A stretch of 64,000 bases of DNA from an uncultured Prevotellaceae bacterium (GTDB taxonomy: Bacteria > Bacteroidota > Bacteroidia > Bacteroidales > Bacteroidaceae), in NCBI GenBank assembly GCA_902784565.1, contig CACZVE010000013.1, positions 1,258 through 65,257 on the forward strand. Direction: 5' to 3'. Both the position numbers and the translations under genes were made by a program. How positions within the stretch are numbered: the stretch's first letter is position 1; every line of letters begins with the position of its first letter. This document shows, piece after piece, positions 4,440-27,566 of this stretch. The notes under the pieces are model-generated. The model ran no database searches. It was given only the letters and a program-made list of their open reading frames with translations, and was not told where the DNA came from.

Positions 4440-5018
4440 TCAAGATTTATCTTCTTCCTCTCTCCGTTTCTGAATGGCTGCATAACCAATCTCAGGAAGT
4501 GGTTCTTGCTGTTTCTCGCCAAGTTGAGTCAAGGCTTCATATACCTGAATGAGTTCTCTCTTGGTTTCTTTCACCTCTTCTCTTGTTGCCGTTCCAGACT
4601 CTTCAAGAGCCTTTATACGCTGGCGCAACTCCTCTATATCCTTTTGGGTAGCCAGAACAGGCAATGCCTGACGCACAGCCACAAAGGCACGCATAATAGA
4701 GATGTTAATTTGAATAGCAATGTTGCTATTCAGAATACCACTCAACATAGCAACACCCTGCTCCGTAAAAGCGTATGGTGGGCGTCTCAGACCTTTCATA
4801 TCTGCTTTGGAGGTCACAATTTGTGACTTCCAAAAAAGGAATTCTTCTTTTGATAACTGAAACATGAAATCCTCAGGAAAACGCAAAATATTACGTTTTA
4901 CTGCTTGTATCAGTGCTTTTGTTTCTACACCATACATGTTTGCCAAGTCGCGATCCAGCATCACGCGCTGGCCCCGAATCTCATAAATCTTCCGTTTGAT
5001 TGGTTCTAATGAGTCCAT
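4440..5018 (-). CDS. ORF6N domain protein with C-terminal coiled coil
   Basis: IYEIRGQRVMLDRDLANMYGVETK...RFPEDFMFQL...PYAFTEQGVAMLSGIL; start set to 5018 because the -7 element lies at 5084-5091. Confidence 0.92.
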   Translation of the reverse strand: MDSLEPIKRKIYEIRGQRVMLDRDLANMYGVETKALIQAVKRNILRFPEDFMFQLSKEEFLFWKSQIVTSKADMKGLRRPPYAFTEQGVAMLSGILNSNIAIQINISIMRAFVAVRQALPVLATQKDIEELRQRIKALEESGTATREEVKETKRELIQVYEALTQLGEKQQEPLPEIGYAAIQKRREEEDKS

Positions 5019-5211
5019 AAATTTGTTGTTAATGTTATGTCTTGTCATAGTCTCCCGAGTTAAGGTTGACATTTAGACGGCTACAAAAGTACTACTTTTT
5101 TGTAACCATTCCAAATCCCTCTTTTCACTTTATCGACGAAACCCCCGTTTTGCTCGATAAGATTTTTTATTTAACTATCTTTAATATCTCCAACACCTCA
5201 GATGTAACGGA

Positions 5212-5640: not shown

Positions 5641-7131
5641 ATGCGAACAAAAAGAATGATGGTAAAGTCGATGTTTATAAGCATCATTACCGCAGGTGTA
5701 TTCTGCTTCGGTCTGACGGCCTGCTCAAACCGTGACAATGGGGATACCCCAGAACCAGAACCGATTGGCGATTACTCAGAGTACGAGAGTTACGGTCTGA
5801 CCTATCCCTATTTTGACCATGCGGACGACGTGAAGATCCTCAATGCCGACACCACGGAGATTGCTGTGAAGAAATCGCTGGCCGACAAACTCGGCATCAA
5901 GACGTTTATCAACCACCCCATCGGCATCTGGGACGCTCCCACGCACCTGGCCTACGGACGTAAGGCCCTGGAAGAGCGGCTCGACGGCGACACATATATC
6001 CTGAAGGTGACGCCGGCCACTGTGGCCGAACTCATCGGTGACAAGGTTAGCCAACTGAGCACTGACATCTTCATCAACCGCGACGCCGACGCCGTGAAGA
6101 AGTTCACAACGCAGAATGGCGTGGCTGAATTTGCCGCCAAGTATATGGAAACCGACGGCACGATCCACCCGTGTATGGTGCATAAGACCGACCGCTTCGG
6201 TTACAAGAAAGACTACTATCTGGAAGGCGAAGACCACGATCCCGACCAGATTATGGCCCACAAGTTAGGCGAGTTCCAGTCGATGACGCCCGAGGAGATA
6301 CTCCAACAGCGCAACGCCTCAGAAAGAGTGCGTATCATCTCGCTGCACAACAACATCAAGTTCGATTATGATATCCCCATCGACGATGATTCGAAGGACT
6401 CCATCAACATCGCAGGCGAGATACCCATCGACTTCGATCTTGACTATTTCATCACCATCGATCCAGGCGTCGACTGGCACTGGTATGGTCCCGAGTTGAT
6501 TGTCGAAAAGTTCGAGACCGGTCTTGCCGGCGAATTCGGATTCCATCCCAGCCTCACTGTCGGCTTCAAAAAAGAACTGAAACTGGATGAGGACAAGGGT
6601 AAGATCCGCCTCGCTTCGTTCAACGGCTTCTCCTTCACCTTCACGGTGGGCATCGTCCCCGTGACCGTCGAGATATCACCGAGCCTGAACCTGGTATTCG
6701 ACGCAAGCGTCAGCGGTGAAGTGCAGTTGGGATTCCGCTACAACTACGCCAACTCGTTCCGTGCGGGTATCCGGTATAACTATGGTAAAGGCTGGGGCAC
6801 CATCAAAGAGTTTGAGGAGAAAGAGAATGAGTTTATCTTCGCACGTCCCGAATTGTCGTTCTCGGCAGAGGCCGGCGTCGGCTTCTTCCTAACGGCAGCC
6901 GCCAAGATCTACGGCGTGGCAGGACCGGAGTTGGGTATCGGACCGCGTCTCGGTGCCAAGGCAGACCTTCTGATCAGTCCCGACGGCGTGGACTGGAGCG
7001 GAGAGGTGAACATGACGCTGCAGGCCTGGGCCGGAGCCAAGGTCGAGATCCTGGGCTACGAACTGGCTGAGTGGAGCACGCGCTTCGACATCGCCGGGCC
7101 CTGGCAGATCCTGAAGTTCCCAACGGATTAA
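5641..7131 (+). CDS. Uncharacterised lipoprotein with Gly/Ala-rich beta-strand C-terminal half
   Basis: Lipobox GLTA|C28 then acidic tether; 496-aa ORF with host-like codon use. Confidence 0.85.
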   Translation: MRTKRMMVKSMFISIITAGVFCFGLTACSNRDNGDTPEPEPIGDYSEYESYGLTYPYFDHADDVKILNADTTEIAVKKSLADKLGIKTFINHPIGIWDAPTHLAYGRKALEERLDGDTYILKVTPATVAELIGDKVSQLSTDIFINRDADAVKKFTTQNGVAEFAAKYMETDGTIHPCMVHKTDRFGYKKDYYLEGEDHDPDQIMAHKLGEFQSMTPEEILQQRNASERVRIISLHNNIKFDYDIPIDDDSKDSINIAGEIPIDFDLDYFITIDPGVDWHWYGPELIVEKFETGLAGEFGFHPSLTVGFKKELKLDEDKGKIRLASFNGFSFTFTVGIVPVTVEISPSLNLVFDASVSGEVQLGFRYNYANSFRAGIRYNYGKGWGTIKEFEEKENEFIFARPELSFSAEAGVGFFLTAAAKIYGVAGPELGIGPRLGAKADLLISPDGVDWSGEVNMTLQAWAGAKVEILGYELAEWSTRFDIAGPWQILKFPTD

Positions 7132-7189
7132 CGAACACCGCGGTTCTGCGGATCATTTCTGATCAAATAACAGGTGTAGAATTCTGAAT

Positions 7190-7227
7190 AAAGAAAGGAA
7201 AAGTCCAATTGGACTTTTCCTTTCTTT
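7190..7227. terminator. Bidirectional terminator (perfect 38-bp palindrome)
   Basis: aaagaaaggaaaagtccaattggacttttcctttcttt between convergent genes. Confidence 0.85.
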
Positions 7228-7249
7228 GAATCCCTTCAACCGAACGATC

Positions 7250-7396
7250 TTACGCTAATTGATTCATGTCCTCGTTATTGGTCAGGCTGGGAATGTAAGT
7301 TCCTGGCTCTGGGCTGCTGCCAACGAATAGACGGGGTGTGTGACTTAATATGAACTCGCGCATAGCGGGCTTCTGATAATGTTTCTTCTCCTTCAT
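7250..7396 (-). CDS. 48-aa peptide with YxxP leader-like motif (not in ORF track)
   Basis: MKEKKHYQKPAMREFILSHTPRLFVGSSPEPGTYIPSLTNNEDMNQLA; ATG 10 bp after upstream stop; stop 22 bp before terminator. Confidence 0.75.
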   Translation of the reverse strand: MKEKKHYQKPAMREFILSHTPRLFVGSSPEPGTYIPSLTNNEDMNQLA

Positions 7397-7406
7397 TGCT
7401 ATTGTG

Positions 7407-10400
7407 TTATTTGTTAATCATTAATCTACCATTATCTATATAGACACCCTTGTGGGGCTTCGTCTTCAATTGTCGGCCCTGCAAGTCGAAGTAACGGTGC
7501 GTGCCGTCACGGTCGATGGTGACAACGGTGGGAGCAATACCCGTCGTTTCGTCGTCGATCTCTTCACCGTCGAAGGCATCAGCGGGGAATTCTTTCAATT
7601 TCAAACCGTCCTCGCCTGCACTCAGCCCCATTGCCATATACATCGATTGGAAGAATTCGAAACCATAAGGTTCTACGGGCAGGAAATAACAGCGGAATGG
7701 ATTCAAATACATCACGCGGTATTTCTCCTCATGGTTCTGTGCAAGCCTGAACTTACCTGTACTCTGCTGCATATAGATATTCTTCTCGGTACATTCGTCA
7801 TTACTGATGAAACTGAAGGTTCCCATCCAGTAACCTACATGGTTGTCACCCGCCTTCTTATAGTCGTCAACGGAGGCATAGACTTTTTCCATATATGGCA
7901 TAGTATTGATAGTAACGTCCTTGGCAGAGAGATCGGCATTTCCGTGGTTGACCACTATAACAGTTGGTTGACCAGCGGGTATCATGCTTGAAACATTGGT
8001 AAAGATGAGTTGCTTCTGTTCCTTGTCGGCAACAATAAGATTATAAGATTTCACCTGATTCCGATCGTCTTGATTAAAGAGGTCTATCTGGTATGGCAGG
8101 CAAATGGTGTATGCCATGCTCTTCCATGTGCCATCACCATTATCGATAGCAGAGAGTACGCGGTCGTAGTCAGCCTTGTCGGCATGGAAATCGTATGGCG
8201 GACAGAAGTCCCAGGATTCGGTGAGTTGCAGTTCAGAGCAGTTCTCGCCCAGGACGGTGTTTCTGGCGGCGGGGGCTTTCGCTTCGGGCAGATAGACCAT
8301 CGCACGCTCATCGATGCCGCTCAGCGGATTATCCTCGCCGCTGCGGTCGCTGCTGATGGGCTCCAGGTCGTCGAGGGCTGTCAGGTCGACACCCATGATG
8401 GTACCCTGGGCGTAACTGAAGGCACCGGAGGCAATCTGCGTCACGTTGACATCCTTCTCAACGCCACCGACCGTGGCGCTGACCATGGCAGGAACAGTGA
8501 CCTGACCGCCGTCGCCTTCGTACTTGGTCAGCACACCGAAGGCACGGTTGCCCGGCAACAGACTGTTGACGGTGAAGGTCATGTCATCGACGGTCACCGT
8601 GCCGCTCTCCTCAAGAGAGTACACCATGTCGTAGTGCGCATTGGCGGCAATGGCAGGATCCTTGTCGATGGTGTTGTAGCCCAGATAGCAGTGGTAGGGT
8701 GCTATCTCCTTGCCTGTCTCGAAGAGGAAACTAAACTGTCCCTCCTCGTTCATCTGCGGGGTCATGATACTGCCCTGTGCCGACGAGCCCTGATTGACGG
8801 GCAGGGGATCGCGCTCAACACCGACGAGCCAGTTCTGGTAGACGGGCCAGCGCTCCACCTCACCCTCGACGGGTGTCAGACGGTAGAGTCCCGGCTGGTC
8901 GGCAAGCACGACGACAGGCTGGATGGCAGGCACCAGACGGCTCTTCTCATAATAGTAGGCCTTATAGTTGTCCTCGTCGAGGTCGTTGACCACGCAGGGA
9001 ATAAGTTCGTCAGGCAACTGGGTGGGGAAACCAATGTAGAAGGTACCGACATAGCGCTTCTGACCTTCGAAGACGGTGGTGACGCCGTCAGGCACCCGCA
9101 ACGGGAAATACTGGTGTAACTTCCCGGCCGAGATATAGGGCTGCCACGACTCTTCCTCCTGGTATTCGGTCAGCAACGTATGGTCGGTGGTGGCGTCACT
9201 GACATAGACGTCCATCTGGGAACCGTCATCGGTGACGAGGGCGCCATCGGCCAGTTCGGGCACGGTGGTGTAGTCGTTGGTCTCGAAGTAGAGTTGACTG
9301 AGGTTGGGCACCTTGTAGAATGCCCCCGAGGCGATGCGTTTCACCGTACCGGTGATGGTAGCCTCAGTGTCGGTACGACCATTGGGGTATGCCGTGAGGA
9401 CATTCTTCTTGGTAAACAGCACGCCGTCACGTGAGGTGAAAGTCCCGTTGAGCGGGTCGACGGCGATGTCTTCTACTGACGAGCCATAGAACGCGCCGCC
9501 CTTGACAGCGGTGACCTTCGACGGTAAAGTGACCGTCGTGAGTTTGTCGCAGTCCTTGAAGGCCTCGGTACCGATGGTCTGCAAGGCGTAGGGCAGGCCG
9601 ACCGACTCGAGACTGCTCAGTCCGTTGAGTTGGGTGGTGAGTTCGCTCACGCTCTTGAAGTAGCGGAACTCGGGGAACTGCTTTATCTTACGGCCCGTGG
9701 CGGTCTGGAAGGCGGTGAGCGTCTGCTCGGTGGTGACGGCCTTCAACTCAGCCAGTGAGAGGTGCTCTGCATCGTCGTCGGTGTTAAAGGCGGCGAGACA
9801 GGCCTGACGGGCATTATCGTCGACAAAGGTGATGCCGGGGGTTACGGCTCCCTTGCTGGGCCGCATAGGGATGTAGTGTTTGGCCGTACCCAACGTGCCA
9901 ATCATGAACTGTAGGCCACCCAGTATCCTTGCTTTCGTATCAGGTTTGTAGTCGTAAGGATCGAAACTCGCTGAGACTGGTACGACAATGCCCATGTCAG
10001 CATCGCTCTCCATATAATCGTTATCTTCGTCGTCAGTACTTGTCCATGTGGCTGCTCCAGGCTCGAAAGGTATCTGGCGGCCAAAACCGTACAGGTAGTT
10101 GTCGGACGACTCTGTGGCGTCGTCATAGACATAGTCGATGTCGGTACGGAAGGGCACCATCAGCAGTTGGGCCATATCGCTCTTGGCAAAGGTCTTCAAT
10201 GTGGGGAAGTAGCCGGGTGTCCACTCCCAACGGTCACGGCTGCTGAGTGCGTTGCCTATCTCGTCGAGCGTCTGACCGCTGTTGGCTTCTTCATAGCCTT
10301 TCAACCAGTAACAGTCCTTGATGTAACTCTTGCCTGAAGCGGTGATGCCGCTGTTCTTGAATTCCTTGTCCTGGTGAGTCATGGGAACCACCGTCAGACA

Positions 10401-12980
10401 GTTGCTGACCTTGCCCTTATTGGCATCGGAGAGACTCACAAAGGATGTAAAGTCAGCAAAAGACCATGAGACAGTATAGACGGCCGCTATGCAGTCCTCG
10501 ATGAGGGCGTCGGCATTCGTCGGACCTACCAGAGAGCAGATACCGCCGGCAGACGCCATATAATAGTTGTCATCGTCGTGCAACCTGCCTACCGTACCCT
10601 GTGCGATGCAGTTGGTGATGGTACCGTCCATCCTGCCTGCAAACAGTCCACTATTCATCGAGGCATGGGTATCCACGATGCCCAGATTTGCCACGCTGCC
10701 GTTGGCGTCAATGTTACCGAAGAGCCCCAGACCCTCATAGGATATATAACCACCTTTTACGAAATGACCCTTACCGTCATAACTGGCTTGCCACGTTGCC
10801 GTCGTCTCCGGCCAGTTATTAAACCAAACATTGTCATTGCTGTTTGTGGGAGTTGCCTCGGAGTGGCGGTTTTCAAAGAGCGTGATATCACAGATCTGCT
10901 CATAGAACGCTCCCTGTTGGTTATTGAGTACGGCATAGGCCAACTGGGCACCATTCTTGATAATATACGGGTCCTCGGCCACACCCGTACCGCCGGCACA
11001 GGCCGTGGCGATAGAACCGTCCCACACCTCGCCATAGACAACGTTCAGGGGGAAGGACTTATGACCCTGCACACTGTAGGGACGACAGAAGGTGGCATCC
11101 ATCTCAGCCGTACTGCTGAGGTCAAGTACACACTGGCCTACAGAATGGGCTTTGACGGTGGCTTCGTCGACCTCAATGCACGACGCCTCAGGAATGATGC
11201 AGTCGCTGGTCAGACGCAAACGGCTGTCGTCGCTCAGTGTCACACTGGCTGTGGCCCGCTTCGTCTCGGCTGTCGACACGAAGTCCATGGCACAGTCGCC
11301 CTTTTGGATGACAACAGGAACGCTGCAGAGCCACGAATCGGCCAAACTGACGGTGTTGTCGGGCAGCATGTCGTAAGCACTGAATAACGCTCTGCATGCC
11401 TCGCTGCAACCGTCGGCCTGAAACTCCGACATGGCAGGCCACACGTTATTACTATACGCGCGCGGATAGAAACCTGACTGCAGCAACATGCCGTAGTCTT
11501 GAGTGTCATCGATGTCCAAGAGCGGCGTATCCGACTGGTCACCAGTGGTGAGTTGCTGGGTGAACAGCCACTTCACGGTGAAGTGCGTCTCCAATTCACT
11601 TGCCACCCTGCCAGGAGGGCAAATGGATTTGTCAATATAACAGTTGGTGATAACAGTCATAGGGTCTTTGTTGTACCCCAGAAGGATACCACTAGGGGCG
11701 TAGGCCGATGATCCGTCCACGGTGCCTAAGAACAGACAGTGATCAATGTACGCATTGTCATCCCAGAACATGGCGCCACAGAGGCCTCCTACCCCATATT
11801 CGGCATTGGTGCCATTGACGTGGCCGGTATAGACACAATAACTAATCTTTGATGTAAGCCCAGATGAGCCGCTATCGTTACTGTCACCCACAATGCCGCC
11901 AACGTAATTCTTTCCGGAAATGTTGGCTGAACTGGTGCAGGCTACGATAGGTACACTGCTCTCCTGCGAACCGCAGATGCCACCGGCAACAGTGACGTTG
12001 CTAAGACTGCCGGAGGAGGAACAGGCCTCGATACGAGTACCCGATTGGGCACTACCGACAATACCGCCTGTGTAGTTAGAGCCCGTGATCGTGACCTGAG
12101 CGGCACAGTCGAAGAGTGTGGCTTTGGTGTCTCTTTTTAACAAGCCGCAAATACCACCAACATCATGAAGATTAGAATACACTGCAGGGATGGCATCGAT
12201 GACGCCTGAGAACGTGGAGTGGCACACACCGTAAGCACCGTTCATTCCCACGATGCCGCCCATAGACAACAGATTCTCAGCAACAAGGTGGGCGTTTGTC
12301 ACCGAAACGGCATAGATGCCGACAGGTACCTGGAAAGTCTTTTCGCCTTCATCAACAGCCGTGACGACGGTTCCTGTTTGGTAGCCGCAAAGTGCGCCGA
12401 CATATCCGTCATACGCTTCATACGATGGATTTTCACTTCGGGCACTGATTTCAACACCATCCAGCCTCATATAGCCTAAGAAGCCGCAACAATAGCCAAA
12501 CAACCCGTACTTGTAGAGATATTTATTGTATTCTTTTGTAATAGGTATTTTGGCATTTATATAGATGTTGGAAATCTTGTGTGTACTCTGTTTCCAACCA
12601 TCCTGATTGGGATCCGTTCCTATGAATACACCCTGGAAACTGTGGGAAGCATTCTTGCCGATGGGAATCCACTGGACGGGCTCGTCACCGTAGGCAGAAC
12701 CGCTCAGGTCAATGTCGGCACCCAACACCACTACTTTGCCTGCGAAAGTATTGTCGGTCTCGTTGACGAGGTACGACAACTGGGCCAGTTGCTCAGGGGT
12801 GGTGATGACGATGGGGTCGGCAAGGCTGCCCTTGTCCTCCACACTGAACGACTCGTCGCGGTAGTCATACCACGTATTACCTTGGAAACCGTCGATTGCC
12901 TCTGCCGACAACGGCCCCATGACGGCCACAAGGACCATCAGCCATTTATACATCTTCTTTATCTTCATAGCCAATATCAT
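7407..12980 (-). CDS. Giant secreted surface protein: GLUG-like beta-helix repeats, BspA-type LRR, T9SS-like CTD
   Basis: Signal peptide; xGGIVG/xGGICG repeats; two G..DP.xI...QLA modules; LQTIGTEAFKDCDKLTTVTLPSKVTAVKGGAFYGS; TTGI...YFDLQGRQL...KGVYIDNG; alternative ATG at 12968. Confidence 0.9.
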   Translation of the reverse strand: MILAMKIKKMYKWLMVLVAVMGPLSAEAIDGFQGNTWYDYRDESFSVEDKGSLADPIVITTPEQLAQLSYLVNETDNTFAGKVVVLGADIDLSGSAYGDEPVQWIPIGKNASHSFQGVFIGTDPNQDGWKQSTHKISNIYINAKIPITKEYNKYLYKYGLFGYCCGFLGYMRLDGVEISARSENPSYEAYDGYVGALCGYQTGTVVTAVDEGEKTFQVPVGIYAVSVTNAHLVAENLLSMGGIVGMNGAYGVCHSTFSGVIDAIPAVYSNLHDVGGICGLLKRDTKATLFDCAAQVTITGSNYTGGIVGSAQSGTRIEACSSSGSLSNVTVAGGICGSQESSVPIVACTSSANISGKNYVGGIVGDSNDSGSSGLTSKISYCVYTGHVNGTNAEYGVGGLCGAMFWDDNAYIDHCLFLGTVDGSSAYAPSGILLGYNKDPMTVITNCYIDKSICPPGRVASELETHFTVKWLFTQQLTTGDQSDTPLLDIDDTQDYGMLLQSGFYPRAYSNNVWPAMSEFQADGCSEACRALFSAYDMLPDNTVSLADSWLCSVPVVIQKGDCAMDFVSTAETKRATASVTLSDDSRLRLTSDCIIPEASCIEVDEATVKAHSVGQCVLDLSSTAEMDATFCRPYSVQGHKSFPLNVVYGEVWDGSIATACAGGTGVAEDPYIIKNGAQLAYAVLNNQQGAFYEQICDITLFENRHSEATPTNSNDNVWFNNWPETTATWQASYDGKGHFVKGGYISYEGLGLFGNIDANGSVANLGIVDTHASMNSGLFAGRMDGTITNCIAQGTVGRLHDDDNYYMASAGGICSLVGPTNADALIEDCIAAVYTVSWSFADFTSFVSLSDANKGKVSNCLTVVPMTHQDKEFKNSGITASGKSYIKDCYWLKGYEEANSGQTLDEIGNALSSRDRWEWTPGYFPTLKTFAKSDMAQLLMVPFRTDIDYVYDDATESSDNYLYGFGRQIPFEPGAATWTSTDDEDNDYMESDADMGIVVPVSASFDPYDYKPDTKARILGGLQFMIGTLGTAKHYIPMRPSKGAVTPGITFVDDNARQACLAAFNTDDDAEHLSLAELKAVTTEQTLTAFQTATGRKIKQFPEFRYFKSVSELTTQLNGLSSLESVGLPYALQTIGTEAFKDCDKLTTVTLPSKVTAVKGGAFYGSSVEDIAVDPLNGTFTSRDGVLFTKKNVLTAYPNGRTDTEATITGTVKRIASGAFYKVPNLSQLYFETNDYTTVPELADGALVTDDGSQMDVYVSDATTDHTLLTEYQEEESWQPYISAGKLHQYFPLRVPDGVTTVFEGQKRYVGTFYIGFPTQLPDELIPCVVNDLDEDNYKAYYYEKSRLVPAIQPVVVLADQPGLYRLTPVEGEVERWPVYQNWLVGVERDPLPVNQGSSAQGSIMTPQMNEEGQFSFLFETGKEIAPYHCYLGYNTIDKDPAIAANAHYDMVYSLEESGTVTVDDMTFTVNSLLPGNRAFGVLTKYEGDGGQVTVPAMVSATVGGVEKDVNVTQIASGAFSYAQGTIMGVDLTALDDLEPISSDRSGEDNPLSGIDERAMVYLPEAKAPAARNTVLGENCSELQLTESWDFCPPYDFHADKADYDRVLSAIDNGDGTWKSMAYTICLPYQIDLFNQDDRNQVKSYNLIVADKEQKQLIFTNVSSMIPAGQPTVIVVNHGNADLSAKDVTINTMPYMEKVYASVDDYKKAGDNHVGYWMGTFSFISNDECTEKNIYMQQSTGKFRLAQNHEEKYRVMYLNPFRCYFLPVEPYGFEFFQSMYMAMGLSAGEDGLKLKEFPADAFDGEEIDDETTGIAPTVVTIDRDGTHRYFDLQGRQLKTKPHKGVYIDNGRLMINK

Positions 12981-13003: not shown

Positions 13004-16000
13004 TTAATAGTTGAACTTGAACACTTCGCCACCGGCATTGAGGATGTACACGTCGTGACGGCGCAGGGGAACAAAGTGCGACGTACTGGAGGCATGGCCC
13101 AGATAGACGGCCCAGCCGGCATTGCTGAACACACGCACCTCATCGCCGGACGACAGACCGTTGAGCAGCACGCCGTCATCCTGGGCTGTGACACTGACAC
13201 GGTGGTCTTCAGGAAGGTTCACAACGGGATGGGTGATGCTGGTGGGTGTGTCACTGGGAAGCAGAGTCACATAAGAGACATGATTGCCTCTGTGTAAGTT
13301 GTTAACACCCTTTTCTTCCGCATTGTTAGTCTCGAGATCAACGACATGGGGCACGATATAGCCGTCAATAGGTTCGGTGACACCCGGGATGACAATCTCG
13401 GCATAGGCTTTGCGCACACCGCCGACACGACGGAAGTCACTGGGGAGCACTGTCGTCTGAGCCTCTTCGCTCAGCAAATCGAGGGCACTGGGGTGAGGGA
13501 AGATGCCCACTTCTACACCTGTGCCGGGAATCAGACCACGGGAAGAGTGGTCAATCACTTCCACGATAAACGTGTTGACACCGTCCTTTATATGGCGGCT
13601 GACCACGTTGCAGTCAATGTCGCCGGCAAGCACACGCTTACGCGGCATTTTGAGGCTCTGGAACCGCAGGTTGCGGGCGGTGGCACGGAATCCTTTCTGA
13701 CTGGTGGCTTTGAAGACATTGTCAAACTCCACACTCACACTGCTCTGGATGTAGCCGTCGAAATCGTCGGGAATGGGGTACTGCACGACAAATGTCTTCT
13801 CCGTCAAAGGCAGCACAAAACTATCGGCAATGTCGATGGACTGGCCGTTGATGGTCACACTGGCGGCCTTGATGGCCGACGTGCCCGTATTCCTGATAAA
13901 TACGTTGACGGGCAGGGCACTGCTACCGTCGAGGGCGGCACGGCTGTAGGTGACGTCACTTTCGAAACTGTTGGTGAACTCCTTCTCGTTCACCATGACG
14001 ACCGAACCACTGGTGACGGCATCCGTCAGGGTATAGACGACCCTGATGCGGGCATCGTCGAGATAGCCGTCGAAGTCGGTCATGATGAGACTGTCGCGTT
14101 CAGCACCAACCGTCAGCGGATAGGTCAGGCCAGGCGATTCCGACATGTGGATGCGGGTGGCGTTCAGCAGGGTGAGTTGATCCTTCAGACCCACGTTGCC
14201 GTTCTCGGCATCGCGTACCACATGGCTCTGCTCCGTCCACAGGAGGGCAAAGTCGTCGGTGTCCTCAGCAGAACGGTCACTGATAATCTTAATCTTGTAA
14301 GGCTTGCTCGTGCCAACGCCAAGGTCGCCACCGGCCAGACCGTCGATGTAACCGTCCATATTGACGGTCTTGAAATAAACCTCGCGTGTGCTGTCGGGCT
14401 TCTCATAGATCATAGCCACCACACCGTGTTGACCCGCACGACTCATGAAGAAGTCGACGGGATGCAGGTCATCATCGACATACTTCACGGTATGCTGCGT
14501 CTGGTTGCCGGCAATGGTCGACAGCGCCACAGAGGCATATTGCATGTGGTAGGCACCGGAGAAACTCTCAATCGGGGCATTGGCATCATTGAGCATAGCA
14601 CCCACCAGTACCGTGTCGTTACGCATAATCAAATCGTACTGAATGGGCCGTTTCGTGGCGTTAATGTCCCACAGGGCAGTAGGACTGCTCCAACCGGCAT
14701 CGGGTGTATAGGTGCGCATCATCAGTTGACCGACAAGCGTGCCCACGGTGTTGTTTTCACCTGGTTGACCGTTTTGCGAGTCCTGTGCGCCATGCTCATA
14801 GATGACGGCAGCCTTGCCGTCGTCCTGGATGGTGACGGCAGGATTCTGATCGATGAAACCGTCGTCGGCGGTCACCTCTGTCTGATGCCACGTTCCGTCA
14901 GACTGACGGATGGAGGCTTTAATCTGAAAATGCTCATGCATGAGGTTGTCAAGTTCAATGGCCGTATCGTCGGTCACGGCACTATTGTCTACCTGCTGAG
15001 CGGTCTGAGTGTAGACCACAATCTCATGGTCCCCACGCTTCGAACGCATGTGCTGACGAGCCTGGGTACCGGGAACGGAGAGAGATTCCGTGCTGACCAC
15101 GTCGTTCAGAGCAGCGGAACCGCTCTGGACTGAGGCATCGTCAGGCAAAGTGGCCATCGCCACATGGTCGTCGTTATAGTCATCAGCACTGCCCAGGTCG
15201 TTGAACACCACGCGATTGCTGCTCAGGAAGTGCGGGTTGGCGTCGTAGAACACATTGTTCAGCAAGGGCTGACCAAGGCTGGTGGGCTCAAGTGTAGGCG
15301 CCGGCTTGAACTTCTTGCCGATGAGTGACCGGGAGGAGTCTGGGTCAGGTAGCCAGTACGGGAACTTGCGATGGAACGGGTTTGAGTTATCATCGGGATA
15401 CAGGAACTCTTTTCCTGCACGCAATGCCGCGCGACCGCTAAAATCAAAGAAGCAAGAGCGAAGCGTCACATAGGCTTCAGCACCGGCACAGCCCATCAGT
15501 CGAAGACCAAATTGGGTCGGTTCGCTACAGAAAGGAATCATCACTCCGGCCGCGAACTGAGCTTTAAAACCGGCGCGTAAACCGGCTTCGAGATTGGCTA
15601 ATGGGCACTGAGGAGTGATGACGCCAAGCCAGGCTCCAGCACGTCCCGTAATCGTCAGGTTGGCAAAGACCCCCTTATCTTCGGTACTCCACTCAAACTT
15701 GTCCGCCTTGCCGTATGACTTGACGCCGAAGTCCACACGGCCATTTATGTCGACCACTGCACCAATATCCAACTTACACTTGAATGGGATGGGCAATTTC
15801 TCCAGCATGTCGTTAACTTTCTTGAATGCCCCCGTCATATTCGTCGGAGTCCAGAAGATGCCCCAACCGCCCTCAATGAAACCAGAGATCTCGTTAAGTT
15901 GCGTTTTGAGGGGTTGGGGAACCACCGGGATATAGTCGCCTATCAAGTTAGTCAGAGGCATCGACAAAGCAATTTTGCCACCGCCACCAACATACCATCC

Positions 16001-18118
16001 TACATGAACGCCCGATACGGCGAAGATGCTTTCCATCTCATCGATGACCCAGTCCTCGAATTTGATCTTGGGATCAGCAACGGTCACAGCGGTTGCTTTC
16101 TTTTCTTTACCTGTGCCCTCAGACTCGAATTCATTGTAGCGCCAGTTCGCTACCTCCTTGGCGTTTTTACGGGCATCATCATATTTTTGTTCGGTTTTTT
16201 CGTCTTTATCCATGTTTTTGCCAAGGTAGATATTGGCGTACGTGTCAAGCGTCTGCTTCCTGAAGTTCCAGATTGAACCTGTCTTGACAACAATACCACC
16301 AGGAATCGTAAATTTGAAATCTGTGGGTATTTGTATACCGAGGTCAAAATCAGCCATAGGACCAGCCACAGCCTCGCGGCTTATATCCGGCGAGAGGTTT
16401 TTCTCGGCATCATCTTCGGTTTCCTTCTTACGCTTCTCCGGGTCATCCTGAACGTTGGTGAATGAAGGGAACTGGTCGTACGATGCCGTCGGCGTATTCA
16501 GCGTCAAGCGGCACTCCTGGTTGTAAGGCAGAGCATTGCCCACATCATAGCGTACAAAATAGTAGTCACGGCTGAAGTTGGTAAACTCATTAGCAGCCAC
16601 CACACGCGTCTCCAAGGCCTCGACCTCATGGGTCTGCTGACTCACCGTCTCAGTCGCTGTCATGTTGCACTGCGGACTGCTGCCCCCCTTGGGAGAAGAG
16701 AACACCACCTCGAAATGCGCCAAATGCTCAACGGGCTTATTGTCCAACAACTTGGGGTAGTTGTTGCCGCCGTCGTCGGCAAAGACAACCTTCTCAGAAG
16801 GCAGTTTGCCGGAGATGTCCTCCTCCTTCAAGGTTACAATGTCGTAAGCCACATCACCGCGCATGACTGCGATGGTCTGATCCTCCAGGTATCGGAAGAA
16901 CTGATTGCTGACAGCAATGCCACCGTCGTCGGCATCGCCGGGACGCAGGGTAATACGGGCCGAACAGAGGTCGGCACTGACCACACGCGAGGTGCGGTCG
17001 GCGGCACCCTTGTAGCGATAGACCAGCGGCAGGTAGCCGTCGGTCAGGATCTCCACGTAGGCTGGATGGCCGTAGGTCAGTACCTTATGGTAATCGTCGT
17101 CGCTGTCGTAGCCTAAGTATTTCAACGTCTGGTCGGGAACCAGATTGCCTTGTTCGTCCACACGGTGTACATGCATCTCGGCATCCTTCACCTCCTTACC
17201 TCTCTCGTTGAACAACTTGATAAACAGCGTGTCGTACTTCTCGAACAAACCCGTGCCTATCCAGTTGAAGTTCATCAGTTCACGGTTCTCGTGCTTGGCC
17301 AGATTGAACTTCGTCGAGAGGTTCGGAACCTCCAACTGATTGTCAATGTCAATGTTTGGATGGATGTCGCTCATGTCCAACTGGAGTTTGACGTCACCCT
17401 CCTGGTCATTGCCCGTCAGGAAGTAGATGTCAGTCAGCGAATGACCCTTCGGCACGTAGAAACTCTGGAACTTCGTCTCCTTCAACTCCAGGACGGTCGA
17501 CTCAGAGTGTACCTCACCTTCCTCGTCCATGTAAGACGTAATATACTCCATCTTATAAGTGTCACCCGTCGCCTGGCGCTTCTGGTCAAGTTGGAAGATG
17601 TAAACGTCATCGTCGTCCCAGTCGTACACCCAGTAACGGAACTGGATGCGCTGCGTCGGATCCTTCCTGCGCCACACGTTGATGGTCACCGAGTCACAGG
17701 CCAACGGCATGTTGGCAAAGAAATACTTGCTGGTGTTCAGCGTCTGAAGCATGTCATTGCCATCATTGTCTTTGCCGTAGTCCACCTCCACGCAGAAACT
17801 GCCGCCGTTCGACTGCATGTCGTCGATGCGGAAGCACAACAGCATCTCATCACGCATCTTCCAGAACAACTGTTGGTCTTCCAGCCCCTTCATACGCGTC
17901 GAGGCCAGCATCTCCTTCACCTTGGTGACATCGTCCAGGTTGCCGTCAATGGAACCGTGAGTGACCTGACGCCAAGACAGTTGCTTGGCCATCTCTGTCA
18001 TATCGTCAAATACCGTCACGTCGGTGACATTCTTGGCATAGTAGAGTTGGAAGTCTTGTGCTGTCGTCGTCAATGTCAACAACAGGAGGATCATTAATGT
18101 ACTGGTTAGTCTTCTCAT
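13004..18118 (-). CDS. Giant secreted protein of unknown function (beta-sheet core, propeller-like region, CARDB-like Ig, T9SS-like CTD)
   Basis: Signal peptide ending TTA|QDF; VFIRNTG Ig motif; PTSI...VRVFSNAG...VYIL...FKFNY tail. Confidence 0.88.
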   Translation of the reverse strand: MRRLTSTLMILLLLTLTTTAQDFQLYYAKNVTDVTVFDDMTEMAKQLSWRQVTHGSIDGNLDDVTKVKEMLASTRMKGLEDQQLFWKMRDEMLLCFRIDDMQSNGGSFCVEVDYGKDNDGNDMLQTLNTSKYFFANMPLACDSVTINVWRRKDPTQRIQFRYWVYDWDDDDVYIFQLDQKRQATGDTYKMEYITSYMDEEGEVHSESTVLELKETKFQSFYVPKGHSLTDIYFLTGNDQEGDVKLQLDMSDIHPNIDIDNQLEVPNLSTKFNLAKHENRELMNFNWIGTGLFEKYDTLFIKLFNERGKEVKDAEMHVHRVDEQGNLVPDQTLKYLGYDSDDDYHKVLTYGHPAYVEILTDGYLPLVYRYKGAADRTSRVVSADLCSARITLRPGDADDGGIAVSNQFFRYLEDQTIAVMRGDVAYDIVTLKEEDISGKLPSEKVVFADDGGNNYPKLLDNKPVEHLAHFEVVFSSPKGGSSPQCNMTATETVSQQTHEVEALETRVVAANEFTNFSRDYYFVRYDVGNALPYNQECRLTLNTPTASYDQFPSFTNVQDDPEKRKKETEDDAEKNLSPDISREAVAGPMADFDLGIQIPTDFKFTIPGGIVVKTGSIWNFRKQTLDTYANIYLGKNMDKDEKTEQKYDDARKNAKEVANWRYNEFESEGTGKEKKATAVTVADPKIKFEDWVIDEMESIFAVSGVHVGWYVGGGGKIALSMPLTNLIGDYIPVVPQPLKTQLNEISGFIEGGWGIFWTPTNMTGAFKKVNDMLEKLPIPFKCKLDIGAVVDINGRVDFGVKSYGKADKFEWSTEDKGVFANLTITGRAGAWLGVITPQCPLANLEAGLRAGFKAQFAAGVMIPFCSEPTQFGLRLMGCAGAEAYVTLRSCFFDFSGRAALRAGKEFLYPDDNSNPFHRKFPYWLPDPDSSRSLIGKKFKPAPTLEPTSLGQPLLNNVFYDANPHFLSSNRVVFNDLGSADDYNDDHVAMATLPDDASVQSGSAALNDVVSTESLSVPGTQARQHMRSKRGDHEIVVYTQTAQQVDNSAVTDDTAIELDNLMHEHFQIKASIRQSDGTWHQTEVTADDGFIDQNPAVTIQDDGKAAVIYEHGAQDSQNGQPGENNTVGTLVGQLMMRTYTPDAGWSSPTALWDINATKRPIQYDLIMRNDTVLVGAMLNDANAPIESFSGAYHMQYASVALSTIAGNQTQHTVKYVDDDLHPVDFFMSRAGQHGVVAMIYEKPDSTREVYFKTVNMDGYIDGLAGGDLGVGTSKPYKIKIISDRSAEDTDDFALLWTEQSHVVRDAENGNVGLKDQLTLLNATRIHMSESPGLTYPLTVGAERDSLIMTDFDGYLDDARIRVVYTLTDAVTSGSVVMVNEKEFTNSFESDVTYSRAALDGSSALPVNVFIRNTGTSAIKAASVTINGQSIDIADSFVLPLTEKTFVVQYPIPDDFDGYIQSSVSVEFDNVFKATSQKGFRATARNLRFQSLKMPRKRVLAGDIDCNVVSRHIKDGVNTFIVEVIDHSSRGLIPGTGVEVGIFPHPSALDLLSEEAQTTVLPSDFRRVGGVRKAYAEIVIPGVTEPIDGYIVPHVVDLETNNAEEKGVNNLHRGNHVSYVTLLPSDTPTSITHPVVNLPEDHRVSVTAQDDGVLLNGLSSGDEVRVFSNAGWAVYLGHASSTSHFVPLRRHDVYILNAGGEVFKFNY

Positions 18119-18163
18119 CACTTATAATTTTTATGTTGAAGAAAAAAGGTTATAAAATCTTCG

Positions 18164-19576: not shown

Positions 19577-20677
19577 TTACACAGATTTCTTTAATAAGTC
19601 AAAATACATATCGAGGAGGTCTTGGGCGGCGACAAAGGAGGTCTTCTGGCCAGCGAGGACGGTCTGCTCTGCGGGCTGGAGTTGTGCCTTGATGAGAGGA
19701 TTGTTATAGAAGTTGAGGCGCAGATGTTCGTTGATACTCTCGTACATCCAGTACTTCGACTGTTCGTTACGCCGGTAGTCAAAGTAGCCGTTAGCCTTCA
19801 CGAAGTCGATATACTCATAGATCATGTCCCATATCTCCTTCACACCCGTCCCATAAAAACCGCTGTAGCAGAGCACCCTCGGACTCCAGCCGCTGTCGGG
19901 CATCGGGAAGAAATGGAGGGCATTGCGGAAGTTCGTCGCTGCCATCTGACAACGGTCCACATTGTCGCCATCGCATTTGTTGATGACAATGCCGTCGCTG
20001 ATCTCCATAATACCGCGCTTGATGCCTTGGAGTTCATCACCAGTCCCTGCCACCTGGATGAGCAGGAAGAAGTCCACCATCGAATGACAGGCCGTCTCGC
20101 TCTGTCCGACACCCACCGTCTCGACGAAGATCTTGTCGAAGCCTGCGGCCTCACAGAGGATGATGGTCTCACGGGTCTTGCGGGCCACACCCCCCAACGA
20201 ACCTGCCGAGGGACTAGGACGGATGAAGGAGTCAGGATGCAGGGCCAGTTTCTCCATACGTGTCTTATCGCCGAGGATGCTGCCCTTGGTACGTTCCGAC
20301 GAGGGGTCGATGGCGAGGACAGCAAGTTTGCCGCCTTTCTCCTTGAGTACGTGGATACCGAACTCGTCGATACTCGTGGACTTACCCGCTCCAGGCACAC
20401 CACTGATACCCACTCGGACGGAGTTGCCACTATAGGGCAGACACTTGTTGATGACCTCCTGCGCCTTCGCCTGATGGTCGGGGTTGACACTCTCGATAAG
20501 GGTCACGGCCTGCGAGAGAACGGTGACATCGCCCTTGAGGATGCCCTCCACCATCTCTGCCGCCGTGAGTTCACGGCGACGGTTACGCTTCAGGTAAGGG
20601 TTGACAATCGGTGGCTGCTTGACACCGCTGTTGACCTGCAGGCCTGCATATTCTGAACTATTCTCAGGATGTTCCAT
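19577..20677 (-). CDS. meaB: Methylmalonyl-CoA mutase-associated GTPase
   Basis: GVPGAGKST, DPSS..GSILGDKTRM, ETVGVGQSE, GDELQGIKRG. Confidence 0.96.
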   Translation of the reverse strand: MEHPENSSEYAGLQVNSGVKQPPIVNPYLKRNRRRELTAAEMVEGILKGDVTVLSQAVTLIESVNPDHQAKAQEVINKCLPYSGNSVRVGISGVPGAGKSTSIDEFGIHVLKEKGGKLAVLAIDPSSERTKGSILGDKTRMEKLALHPDSFIRPSPSAGSLGGVARKTRETIILCEAAGFDKIFVETVGVGQSETACHSMVDFFLLIQVAGTGDELQGIKRGIMEISDGIVINKCDGDNVDRCQMAATNFRNALHFFPMPDSGWSPRVLCYSGFYGTGVKEIWDMIYEYIDFVKANGYFDYRRNEQSKYWMYESINEHLRLNFYNNPLIKAQLQPAEQTVLAGQKTSFVAAQDLLDMYFDLLKKSV

Positions 20678-20687
20678 TATTCACTAT

Positions 20688-21791
20688 TCACTTTTCACTA
20701 TTTACTTTGATATTAATCACCACCTTGGCGTGGTCGGGATCGTTGGTAATCATGAGGATACGGGGTTTGGTGCGCAGTTTCTGGAGGTCTTCGGCATAAC
20801 CCGTCACCTTCAATGTCGTGGACAGCCCTGGCTCCAGTTCCTGTTTGCCTAACGTCACCTTCAGACCTTCCGTGAAGAGTTGCATAGAGGATATCTTCAA
20901 TGTGGTCTTGCCCGTATTGGAAAGCAACATCTCTACCGTCTTCTTTTTCTTGCCGCCGAAGTCGGTGAAGTCGATATCGGTGGAAGACATCTGGAGTTGC
21001 GGGGCGAGACCCTTACTGAACTCGTCGTAGTCCTGCAGATGGGGCAGCAATACTACAGAGACAGGTATCTCACTATCCTTGCTCACCTTCTCACCCAAGC
21101 GTCTGCCTAAATAAACGGAGGTCTGTGTCAGACCGAAATCACGCAACTTGTCGGAGTTCAGGGTGATAGAGATAGTACCACCCTTGCCGGGTTCCAGAAT
21201 CTCGGGCTTCGTGGTGGCGGAGAGGTACGGCGGCAGATGCATCAGATGGGGTTGCATAGGTTTCTCACCGTTGTTCATCACATGGATCTCCTGCATTGGC
21301 GTGTCGCCCTTGTTGACATCATCAAACTCCAGGACATTATTATCGTAGAGCATGTCACCCATCGTGAGGGGATAGTTACCGGTATAGTCAAGCACCTCCG
21401 GTACCACAACACCTCGCATCGTCAGATAGACGGGTTTCTGGGAACCGTTACTGACAACGGCAACCATCTTCTGGAAATGACCCAACATCTTGGCATCGTA
21501 TGTCATCCTGATGTTGAACTTATCGCCTGCGTCCACCTCCTTGGGGTACTCCACAGCCGTACAGCCGCAGTCGGGCTTCACGCTCTCGATAATGAGTTTC
21601 CGACGGCCTTTGTTGCGGAGTTCGAAGGTAGCCGTGATGGGCTGCTGGAATCCCGTACGACCGGCATTCACCTTGGTCTGCGTCACCTCTAAGGTCTGGG
21701 ACAGAGAAGTGAGAAGTGAAAAGTGATAAGTGATAAGTATCACTATCATCCTCAACATCCACTGCCATTTCATATTCTTCATTCGTTTCAT
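20688..21791 (-). CDS. DUF1573 domain protein (tandem Ig-like domains)
   Basis: Signal peptide; VKPDCGCT motif; usual neighbour of meaB in Bacteroidales. Confidence 0.88.
   Translation of the reverse strand: MKRMKNMKWQWMLRMIVILITYHFSLLTSLSQTLEVTQTKVNAGRTGFQQPITATFELRNKGRRKLIIESVKPDCGCTAVEYPKEVDAGDKFNIRMTYDAKMLGHFQKMVAVVSNGSQKPVYLTMRGVVVPEVLDYTGNYPLTMGDMLYDNNVLEFDDVNKGDTPMQEIHVMNNGEKPMQPHLMHLPPYLSATTKPEILEPGKGGTISITLNSDKLRDFGLTQTSVYLGRRLGEKVSKDSEIPVSVVLLPHLQDYDEFSKGLAPQLQMSSTDIDFTDFGGKKKKTVEMLLSNTGKTTLKISSMQLFTEGLKVTLGKQELEPGLSTTLKVTGYAEDLQKLRTKPRILMITNDPDHAKVVINIKVNSEK
21704..21738. repeat. Heptamer repeat (GANAAGT)x5 inside DUF1573 signal peptide
   Basis: gagaagt gagaagt gaaaagt gataagt gataagt. 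Confidence 0.8.
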
Positions 21792-21825
21792 ATCATTTAT
21801 ATTGCGGTAGCAAATTTTTCACTTT

Positions 21826-27351: not shown

Positions 27352-27566
27352 CGTTTTGTTGTTTTTTGATTCAACTATGCAAAGGTAGCGAATTTCTTTG
27401 AATAACATTTGGAATTTATGAAATATTATATTATCTTGAATTTCATTCGAAGAAAACTTATTCTCTTTCTCATATATTGTACTGAAATGTAAATCGTCTG
27501 TTCAGCAAGCCCTCTATCAGACTGACTTCGGTTTTGCTCATCATCAATTCGGTCTTTATCTATATA

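Follow-up and report, generated by a model that had tools for sequence, protein, structure and literature searches.

What is made from a 48-codon open reading frame (ORF) that stands between a giant gene and a terminator-like hairpin in the genome of an uncultured Prevotellaceae bacterium? The frame lies on the minus strand of the window, the stretch of 64,000 nucleotides of contig CACZVE010000013.1 (assembly GCA_902784565.1) that was analysed, and its translation, read from 7396 to 7250, is MKEKKHYQKPAMREFILSHTPRLFVGSSPEPGTYIPSLTNNEDMNQLA (48 aa). A preliminary description of the locus had reported a basic N-terminus, a YxxP motif, a hydrophobic stretch and a polar tail, all of which are present, and had proposed an orphan peptide with a leader like those of ribosomally made peptides that undergo post-translational modification (RiPPs). 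With a probability of about 65%, we read the ORF as a dispersed precursor resembling LppA, the precursor of the linear polyphosphorylated peptides (LPP) of Bacillota. It would be served in trans by an enzyme operon on contig C14 of the same genome, and its product would be a linear, probably Ser-phosphorylated, exported peptide.

Leader and core of the peptide family

Direct searches retrieved close relatives only, P0002-P0004, with identities of 94, 77 and 69%. When 400 genomes from the same taxonomic family were searched in six frames, many small open frames that have the first ~27 residues in common came to light, and the resulting family was represented in 141 of 401 such genomes, with up to 13 copies per genome (profile matches with E <= 0.01). 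In a collection of 5.8 billion proteins, 584 matched the family profile, all of them nameless and without Pfam domains; an exhaustive HMMER scan gave 3,703 cluster representatives at 50% identity, nearly all of 38-117 aa, and the label of an orphan had to be dropped. In one protein of 1683 aa (P0128), positions 14-37 of the profile were matched in 13 separate stretches, which is probably a low-complexity artefact. A leader hidden Markov model (HMM), built from other genera only and with the window peptide and its close relatives left out, scored the window peptide at 27 bits (E 1e-10). No Pfam or NCBIfam model was matched by the peptide or its relatives, and over 37 family members only stray weak matches were obtained, two of them to lasso-precursor models.

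The logo of the 270 top members reads M-K-K-K-x-Y-[QE]-K-P-T-M-x-V-V-x-L-Q-[HQ]-x3-[LI]-L-x-G-S. Tyr and Pro are conserved in 100% of these members, Met in 94% and the final Ser, at Y+20, likewise in 94%; the YxxP motif singled out in the preliminary description is the invariant core of a very large leader-plus-core family. The search pattern proposed there (Y.KP.{10,14}GS) fits neither the window peptide nor the family consensus, as 16 residues separate P from GS. A natural variant was found in an operon-encoded member (L171:869-1018), which has Y-E-K-L and so lacks the otherwise invariant Pro. The tails have a median length of 22 residues and are rich in Gly, Glu, Asp and Ser; Trp occurs within the last eight residues in 80% of members, and Cys is found in only 3% of tails, making thioether or sactipeptide chemistry unlikely. 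The lone peptide was predicted to be extended and unstructured, as expected of a leader peptide.

The ratio of nonsynonymous to synonymous substitution rates (dN/dS) was determined for 12 informative pairs, which were other family pairs and not P0002-P0004. It was 0.03-0.24 in the leader, where synonymous sites were often saturated, and 0.17-1.15 in the tail. The family is translated, and because leader values are low while those of the tail reach about 1, the leader is constrained and the core diversifying. Homologues and purifying selection, the absence of which would have spoken against the preliminary description, were both found, and the 48-codon ORF is a true gene under selection. Its shortness, the frequent skipping of such frames by gene callers and the missing Pfam/NCBIfam model would agree with a frame that is open by chance between genes, but thousands of homologues, the invariant Tyr and Pro and a leader dN/dS far lower than 1 where synonymous sites are saturated make this explanation practically negligible. 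As a translated small-ORF family that gene callers and domain libraries have missed, these peptides belong in annotation pipelines.

The window peptide is one of a minority subfamily whose tail has the form Y-I-P-x(5-6)-[DE]-hydrophobic-N-x-hydrophobic-A; its own tail, YIPSLTNNEDMNQLA, is specific to this subfamily. Scanning of metagenomes with the single window peptide as query gave nothing, and with the family alignment as query four loci were found. The tail class recurs in another genus (L067) and in the metagenome contigs L152-L154, where the peptide lies directly 3' of a giant gene ending in G-[IVL]-Y-I-x-N-x-x-x-V-I-K.

The enzyme operon and its linkage to the peptides

The lead to processing enzymes came from two sampled loci, in which family peptides stand beside NTP_transf_5, an S24-like peptidase and a P-loop protein that matches HprK weakly. 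A search of the peptide's own genome with these proteins yielded one operon, on contig C14 (L102, 8783-11923), which encodes a PqqD protein, the P-loop protein, a peptidase and an exporter. The PqqD gene is the only one in the host genome. The structure model of the P-loop protein (predicted local distance difference test score 95) gave as best fold matches the phosphoenolpyruvate (PEP) carboxykinases, whose superfamily includes HprK, and the protein is referred to here as the kinase. In the peptidase, S28, H66-R67 and G80-D81-G82-N83 were invariant in 23 homologues and correspond to a Ser/His/Asp set. Sequence searches of the PDB with the kinase and with PqqD returned nothing informative. A 43-bp unit in about six tandem copies (66-77% matches; L102:8319-8583) was observed ~200 bp upstream of the PqqD gene, within the otherwise gene-free 775 bp before the operon, and could be a regulatory element.

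Of the 401 genomes sampled from the family, 317 have the operon. Kinase, peptidase and PqqD form a syntenic trio in almost every one of the ~130 operon loci retrieved, often accompanied by the exporter and sometimes by NTP_transf_5. The closest homologues of the kinase belonged to Prevotella metagenome-assembled genomes (MAGs) from goat, deer and cattle rumen, and the sequencing runs containing the window sequence were bovine; for these reasons the host is taken as a rumen Prevotella. Kinase homologues 54-60% identical to that of Prevotella were also seen in seven contigs (L175, L176, L178, L179, L181, L185 and L192) of independent Fibrobacter succinogenes and Fibrobacter sp. rumen MAGs, three of which carry family precursors and NTP_transf_5 with the kinase. 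This suggests either cross-phylum transfer in the rumen or mis-binned contigs.

Some members of the family are encoded in the operon itself. At L103 the peptide is the first gene, followed by NTP_transf_5, kinase, S24-like peptidase, PqqD and ATP-binding cassette (ABC) exporter. Two Prevotellaceae MAGs, L165 and L171, and three Fibrobacter MAGs, L175, L176 and L192, likewise have a family peptide as the first gene; in L165 a tandem pair of peptides immediately precedes the kinase. The tails of operon-encoded Fibrobacter peptides (...GLAPTHNDDRLA and ...GLAPMPKDHLA) resemble that of the window peptide. In four species of one genus the peptide is convergent and lies just past the exporter, and in three species of another genus satellite loci with peptide, NTP_transf_5 and S24-like peptidase were found. 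As a genome of 3 Mb holds a few of the peptides, chance alone would bring about such adjacency, within 3 kb, in far fewer than 1% of genomes.

The kinase was present in 136 of 140 peptide-positive and in 180 of 260 peptide-negative genomes (odds ratio 15), and a within-genus Cochran-Mantel-Haenszel test of this co-occurrence gave p = 5e-4, figures that are confounded by phylogeny (shared ancestry) and MAG incompleteness. The four peptide-positive genomes lacking the kinase are MAGs of 82-93% completeness. At the level of the order (190 genomes), the peptide occurred in three genomes, which belong to three different families, and the kinase in 30; all three peptide-positive genomes were kinase-positive (p = 0.004).

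The enzymes of this operon recall those of the LPP pathway described by Popov et al. (Nat Commun 2026, PMC13381572) in Paenibacillus alginolyticus (lppA-K-B-S-D-N). There, lppA encodes the precursor, lppK an HprK-like kinase, lppB a RiPP recognition element (RRE), lppD an MsbA-like exporter and lppN a nucleoside triphosphate (NTP) transferase, and no cyclase is present; lppS encodes an archaeal-type signal-peptidase-like leader peptidase, for which S29, H68 and D93 are essential. The LppA leader, YxxPxVLxHQxIxFETxxS, is cut in an RRE-dependent manner after T(-1), two residues before the phosphorylated Ser3, and Ser3 of the core is polyphosphorylated (PMC13381572).

By analogy, the leader of the window peptide (about M1-F24, with Y7-x-x-P10-x-M12) would be bound in trans by the single PqqD-family RRE of the genome. 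The adjacent kinase of HprK/PEP carboxykinase fold may phosphorylate S27, the predicted third residue of the core. The neighbouring Ser/His/Asp protease, which is of the archaeal-type signal-peptidase-like kind, would remove the leader, and the MsbA-like ABC exporter of the same operon would secrete the 24-residue core. Cleavage is predicted after L-L, in the window peptide after F24, giving a core that begins with V25-G26-S27.

When compared by consensus only, YxKPxMxVVxLQ[HQ]xxxLLxGS of the family shares Tyr, Pro, a hydrophobic pair, a Q/H pair and the terminal Ser with the LppA leader, and if the family Ser is counted as Ser3, the two consensus sequences agree at V(-11), at the hydrophobic position -10 and at Q(-7). 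The LppA motif Y-x-x-P-x-hydrophobic is present in the window peptide (Y7, P10, M12), and the length of 35-200 aa with a hypervariable core that characterizes LppA agrees with that of the family members. A precursor adjacent to the cluster is seen at L103, L165, L171, L175, L176 and L192 and not in the case of the window peptide.

The locus, its surroundings and competing explanations

The features of the locus and of the operon are compiled in Table 1. The 10-nt and 23-nt gaps and the 3' hairpin indicate that the peptide gene is the last gene of a putative operon with two giant surface-protein genes and is probably co-transcribed with them; as had been described, it fills the space between the last giant gene and the terminator. 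The hairpin is a perfect 17-bp stem of -33 kcal/mol, with none of 200 shuffled sequences folding equally well. It begins 22 nt after the stop codon of the peptide gene and is common to this gene and the convergent gene 5641..7131 (plus strand). No sigma-70-like promoter was found between giant gene and peptide, and an Rfam scan of 6900-7700 gave only sub-threshold hairpin matches, none at gathering score. A bovine metatranscriptome contig of 151 nt covers 7310-7460, across the junction of giant gene and peptide; it derives from a related strain, differing by K2M and one synonymous change, and gives weak support to co-transcription. Stretches without metatranscriptome coverage carry no information.

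Table 1. Features of the peptide locus in the window and proteins of the operon on contig C14.
Feature	Position	Strand	Basis
48-codon gene of the putative LppA-like precursor peptide	7250..7396 (stop codon included)	minus	ORF list, sequence, independent leader HMM, relatives
Predicted leader M1-F24; Y7-x-x-P10-x-M12 is the putative RRE-binding motif	7325..7396	minus	Family logo, leader dN/dS; boundary by LppA analogy (PMC13381572)
Predicted core V25-A48; S27 is the predicted core Ser3 and phospho-acceptor	7253..7324	minus	Ser 94% conserved at Y+20; site predicted only
Spacer of 10 nt, giant gene stop (TAA) to peptide ATG	7397..7406	minus	Sequence
Bidirectional terminator-like hairpin, 17-bp stem, AAUU loop	7190..7227	both strands	Fold z = -5.3
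Gene of 1857-aa surface-type protein, BspA-type LRR_5; upstream, co-oriented, probably co-transcribed	7407..12980	minus	Pfam LRR_5, E 7e-12
Gene of 1705-aa protein, first giant gene of the same putative operon	13004..18121	minus	ORF list; no Pfam/NCBIfam family; 23-nt gap to next gene
PqqD protein, 88 aa	contig C14 (L102)		PF05402, 57.8 bits, E 1.4e-15
P-loop protein, 283 aa	contig C14 (L102)		Weak ScmC, HprK_rel_A, HprK_rel_B and PEPCK matches
S24/S26-like peptidase, 141 aa	contig C14 (L102)		Matches bacterial and archaeal signal peptidase I
MsbA-like ABC exporter, 556 aa	contig C14 (L102)		No C39 peptidase domain

Near the peptide, the window contains no RRE, peptidase or cyclase, in agreement with the preliminary description. 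Processing in trans, which had been suggested on this ground, is also what we would predict, since the sole PqqD/RRE gene of the genome lies on C14 together with kinase, peptidase and exporter, and family peptides head the same operon elsewhere. The alternative put forward there, a signalling or chaperone peptide, met with neither support nor contradiction in the analysis. The view of the neighbouring giant proteins as cargo of the type IX secretion system (T9SS) could not be confirmed: neither the whole proteins nor their last 110 residues gave a Pfam or NCBIfam match to a T9SS C-terminal domain, and the likeness to T9SS sorting domains is confined to the C-terminal pattern ...KGVYIDNGRLMINK, as read by eye. 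The window has no AraC-type regulator, and its giant proteins show no similarity to the sampled giant-protein cluster.

Farther away, the convergent gene encodes a 496-aa lipoprotein that belongs to no family and has as its sole match a weak one to a TonB-receptor barrel (E 0.11). Just past it lies a run of genes of mobile-element or phage type (922-5072, minus strand), which comprises a VapE-like gene (922-2184), Peptidase_M15_3 (2207-2692), an unassigned gene of 400 aa and an ORF6N-domain gene (4440-5072). On the minus strand at 19577-27408, a third giant gene (21826-27408) encodes a bacterial alpha-2-macroglobulin, which is unrelated to the peptide operon, and is followed by genes of a DUF1573/Ig-like protein and a MeaB GTPase.

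The surroundings of the family were sampled at 45 members with 10-20 kb of context. The arrangement of the window, with a large gene followed on the same strand by the peptide (gap of -1 to 41 nt), was found at 19 of the 45 loci, and the large genes carried GLUG, Calx-beta, InlB B-repeat or DUF285 domains. At about 24 of the 45, the peptide was followed after 9-80 nt by a gene on the same strand, usually for a lipoprotein of 280-770 aa without a Pfam family. Membrane-anchored AraC-type regulators occurred near the peptide at six loci. Multi-pass membrane proteins of 360-430 aa with a C-terminal AraC-type helix-turn-helix (HTH), found beside giant-protein/peptide loci at L065, L067, L069, L078 and L083, are candidate regulators or sensors. 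At L155:3052-3400, two family peptides with different tails stand in tandem directly after a large gene ending in ...GVYIYNGVKTVIK. In three species of one genus (L060, L061 and L064), NTP_transf_5 and an extra S24-like peptidase directly follow a family peptide; this second, partial enzyme set accompanies a main kinase-peptidase-PqqD operon at another site of the genome (L108, L144). At L060 and L061, two distinct family peptides are separated by 3 kb.

The constant placement of the peptides beside surface-protein genes suggests for the mature peptide a role at the cell surface or between cells that is coupled to the expression of these neighbours. The same placement would fit a small accessory protein that serves the adjacent surface-protein genes without being processed, acting as assembly or secretion helper, inhibitor or ligand of an AraC regulator, with an incidental likeness to RRE-bound leaders. 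In its favour are the dominant context, which is that of surface-protein and lipoprotein genes and not the enzyme operon, the tail classes, which follow the type of neighbour, and the membrane AraC regulators. We consider it rather unlikely, as it would leave unexplained the operon-embedded members, the near-nested co-occurrence with the kinase and the agreement with LppA in the exact Y-x-x-P-x-hydrophobic motif and the conserved Ser, and as the lone peptide was predicted to be unstructured. An accessory function and processing are compatible, and a processed peptide could act on its neighbours.

Several observations weigh against the processed LppA-like precursor. The family Ser is at Y+20 and that of Bacillota LppA at Y+18, which makes the distance from Pro to Ser two residues longer; L-L precedes the predicted cut where LppA has F-E-T, and the likeness to the Bacillota Lpp proteins was judged by gene set and motif. 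No NTP_transf_5 gene was found in the host genome, which is 79% complete. Peptide (contig C13) and operon (contig C14) of the host are on different contigs, and the co-occurrence figures are confounded as stated above. About 90% of the operons examined had no detectable family peptide within 5-7 kb, and for this reason the peptides, if they are substrates, are assumed to be supplied usually in trans. A search by regular expression for other small precursors beside 39 precursor-less operons gave nothing convincing. The RNA evidence consists of the one metatranscriptome contig, at depth 2. Finally, the window peptide itself is divergent, with R-E-F where the family has x-V-V, without the C-terminal Trp or acidic end, and with 27 bits as compared with 40-59 for typical members.

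This divergence, including a leader score lower than in any other member examined, E-F in place of V-V and the missing usual C-terminus, might also mean that the member has degenerated in the host genome, where the frame would be open and no longer recognised or used. Such decay is improbable. P0002-P0004 keep the same variant leader and tail, and the tail class persists in other genera and in metagenomes, with synonymous sites saturated (dN/dS of the tail 0.18 between the window peptide and L154, and overall 0.14 between L152 and L154); the spacing to the upstream gene and to the terminator is intact as well.

If the peptide is indeed a processed precursor, a bolder proposal may be made, which is speculative and which we hold to be unlikely as a whole: one near-universal LPP machine in Prevotella and relatives would serve dozens of dispersed precursors, each hard-wired to a different giant-adhesin or lipoprotein operon, and the matching secreted phosphopeptide would broadcast or complete expression of the surface set. 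Gram-negative anaerobes of gut and rumen might in this way possess a system of peptide signalling or surface coding, possibly read by membrane AraC-type regulators at some loci.

Comparison with known systems

Lasso-type leaders, with which the peptide had been compared in the preliminary description, share with the family the binding determinants of the PqqD-type B1 protein, Y(-17), P(-14) and L(-12) (PMC10368454), matched here by Y-x-x-P-x-[ML]. In lasso clusters with HprK-like kinases, these phosphorylate the precursor Ser in an RRE-dependent manner (PMC10368454, PMC7533575). Such clusters (paeninodin pade, pseudomycoidin psm and Bradymonas bsf; PMC10368454, PMC7533575) resemble the system described here in the Y-x-x-P-x-L motif, the split PqqD B1, the RRE-dependent HprK-like kinase acting on a precursor Ser (Ser3 in BsfA), the NTP transferase and the ABC exporter. 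Unlike them, the present system lacks a macrolactam synthetase, a B2 cysteine protease, Thr/Ile at -2 and the [GA]x7D ring motif, and its expected product is linear.

A true lasso-peptide precursor is therefore highly improbable, in spite of the motif and of weak matches to the paeninodin leader model NF033524. The two best matches to this model in genome G360 fall on family peptides, but at 14 bits they are below the 27-bit cut-off and cover model positions 1-16 only; the window peptide gave no match. The B2 protease (PF13471) was not found in the host genome at its 79% completeness, and the only clear Asn synthase match (PF00733), on contig C61, belongs neither to the window nor to the C14 operon. 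In lasso precursors, Thr (rarely Ile/Val) is at -2, and Gly, Ala, Ser or Cys is core residue 1, 17 residues after the motif Tyr. In the family, Y+15 (-2) is His (0.48) or Gln (0.24) and Y+17 (core 1) is Leu (0.81), and the window peptide has R22 and F24; moreover, its core has no Asp or Glu 7-9 residues after G26 or S27 to close a ring. The matching pathway would thus be the cyclase-less LPP pathway rather than a lasso pathway.

Double-glycine leader peptides of Bacteroidales (bacteroidetocins and GG-motif RiPP precursors; PMC10352776) are likewise small leader-plus-core peptides exported by ABC transporters after leader removal. The family differs from them in having an x-G-S pair with invariant Ser, an exporter without C39, and separate RRE, kinase and serine peptidase. 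Because this exporter lacks a C39 domain and the position preceding the conserved Ser varies, a leader of the double-glycine type was ruled out.

In surveys by antiSMASH, RRE-containing or Stand_Alone_Lasso_RRE protoclusters were reported from Prevotella, Segatella and gut Bacteroidales (bioRxiv 10.1101/2025.09.04.674288; 10.1101/2025.01.13.632881); neither survey names a precursor or product, one proposes an encrypted peptide within a neighbouring protein, and RRE-containing clusters were associated with dental caries in one oral-microbiome survey. Most likely, these protoclusters are the same PqqD and Peptidase_S24 operon. Whereas they lack a precursor, the scattered Y-x-K-P peptides are candidate precursors, so that the product-less clusters of Prevotella and Segatella gain a testable set.

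LPP clusters have been described as restricted to Bacillota and as often located in capsule loci (PMC13381572). The C14 operon has the same enzyme set, namely RRE, HprK-like kinase, signal-peptidase-I-like Ser/His/Asp peptidase and exporter, and the family peptides are similar to LppA in the Y-x-x-P leader, the conserved Ser soon after the leader and the hypervariable C-termini. If the LppA-like reading is true, a pathway described in 2026 as confined to one phylum extends to gut and rumen Bacteroidota, where its enzyme set is near-core in Prevotella and relatives and faces a very large pool of candidate substrates. What would be new is the phylum, the near-universality of the operon in the family and the dispersed, surface-operon-linked precursors; the predicted chemistry is that of the Bacillota work. 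In Bacilli the clusters are patchy, in contrast to the 317 of 401 genomes with the operon in this family, and the family precursors, unlike those of LPP clusters, are mostly scattered, multi-copy and remote from the enzymes. This would be a RiPP-type system in which most precursors are dispersed, act in trans and are linked one by one to surface-protein operons. In both groups the precursors are near cell-surface loci, in Bacilli those of the capsule and here the surface-protein operons, which argues for a function at the cell surface.
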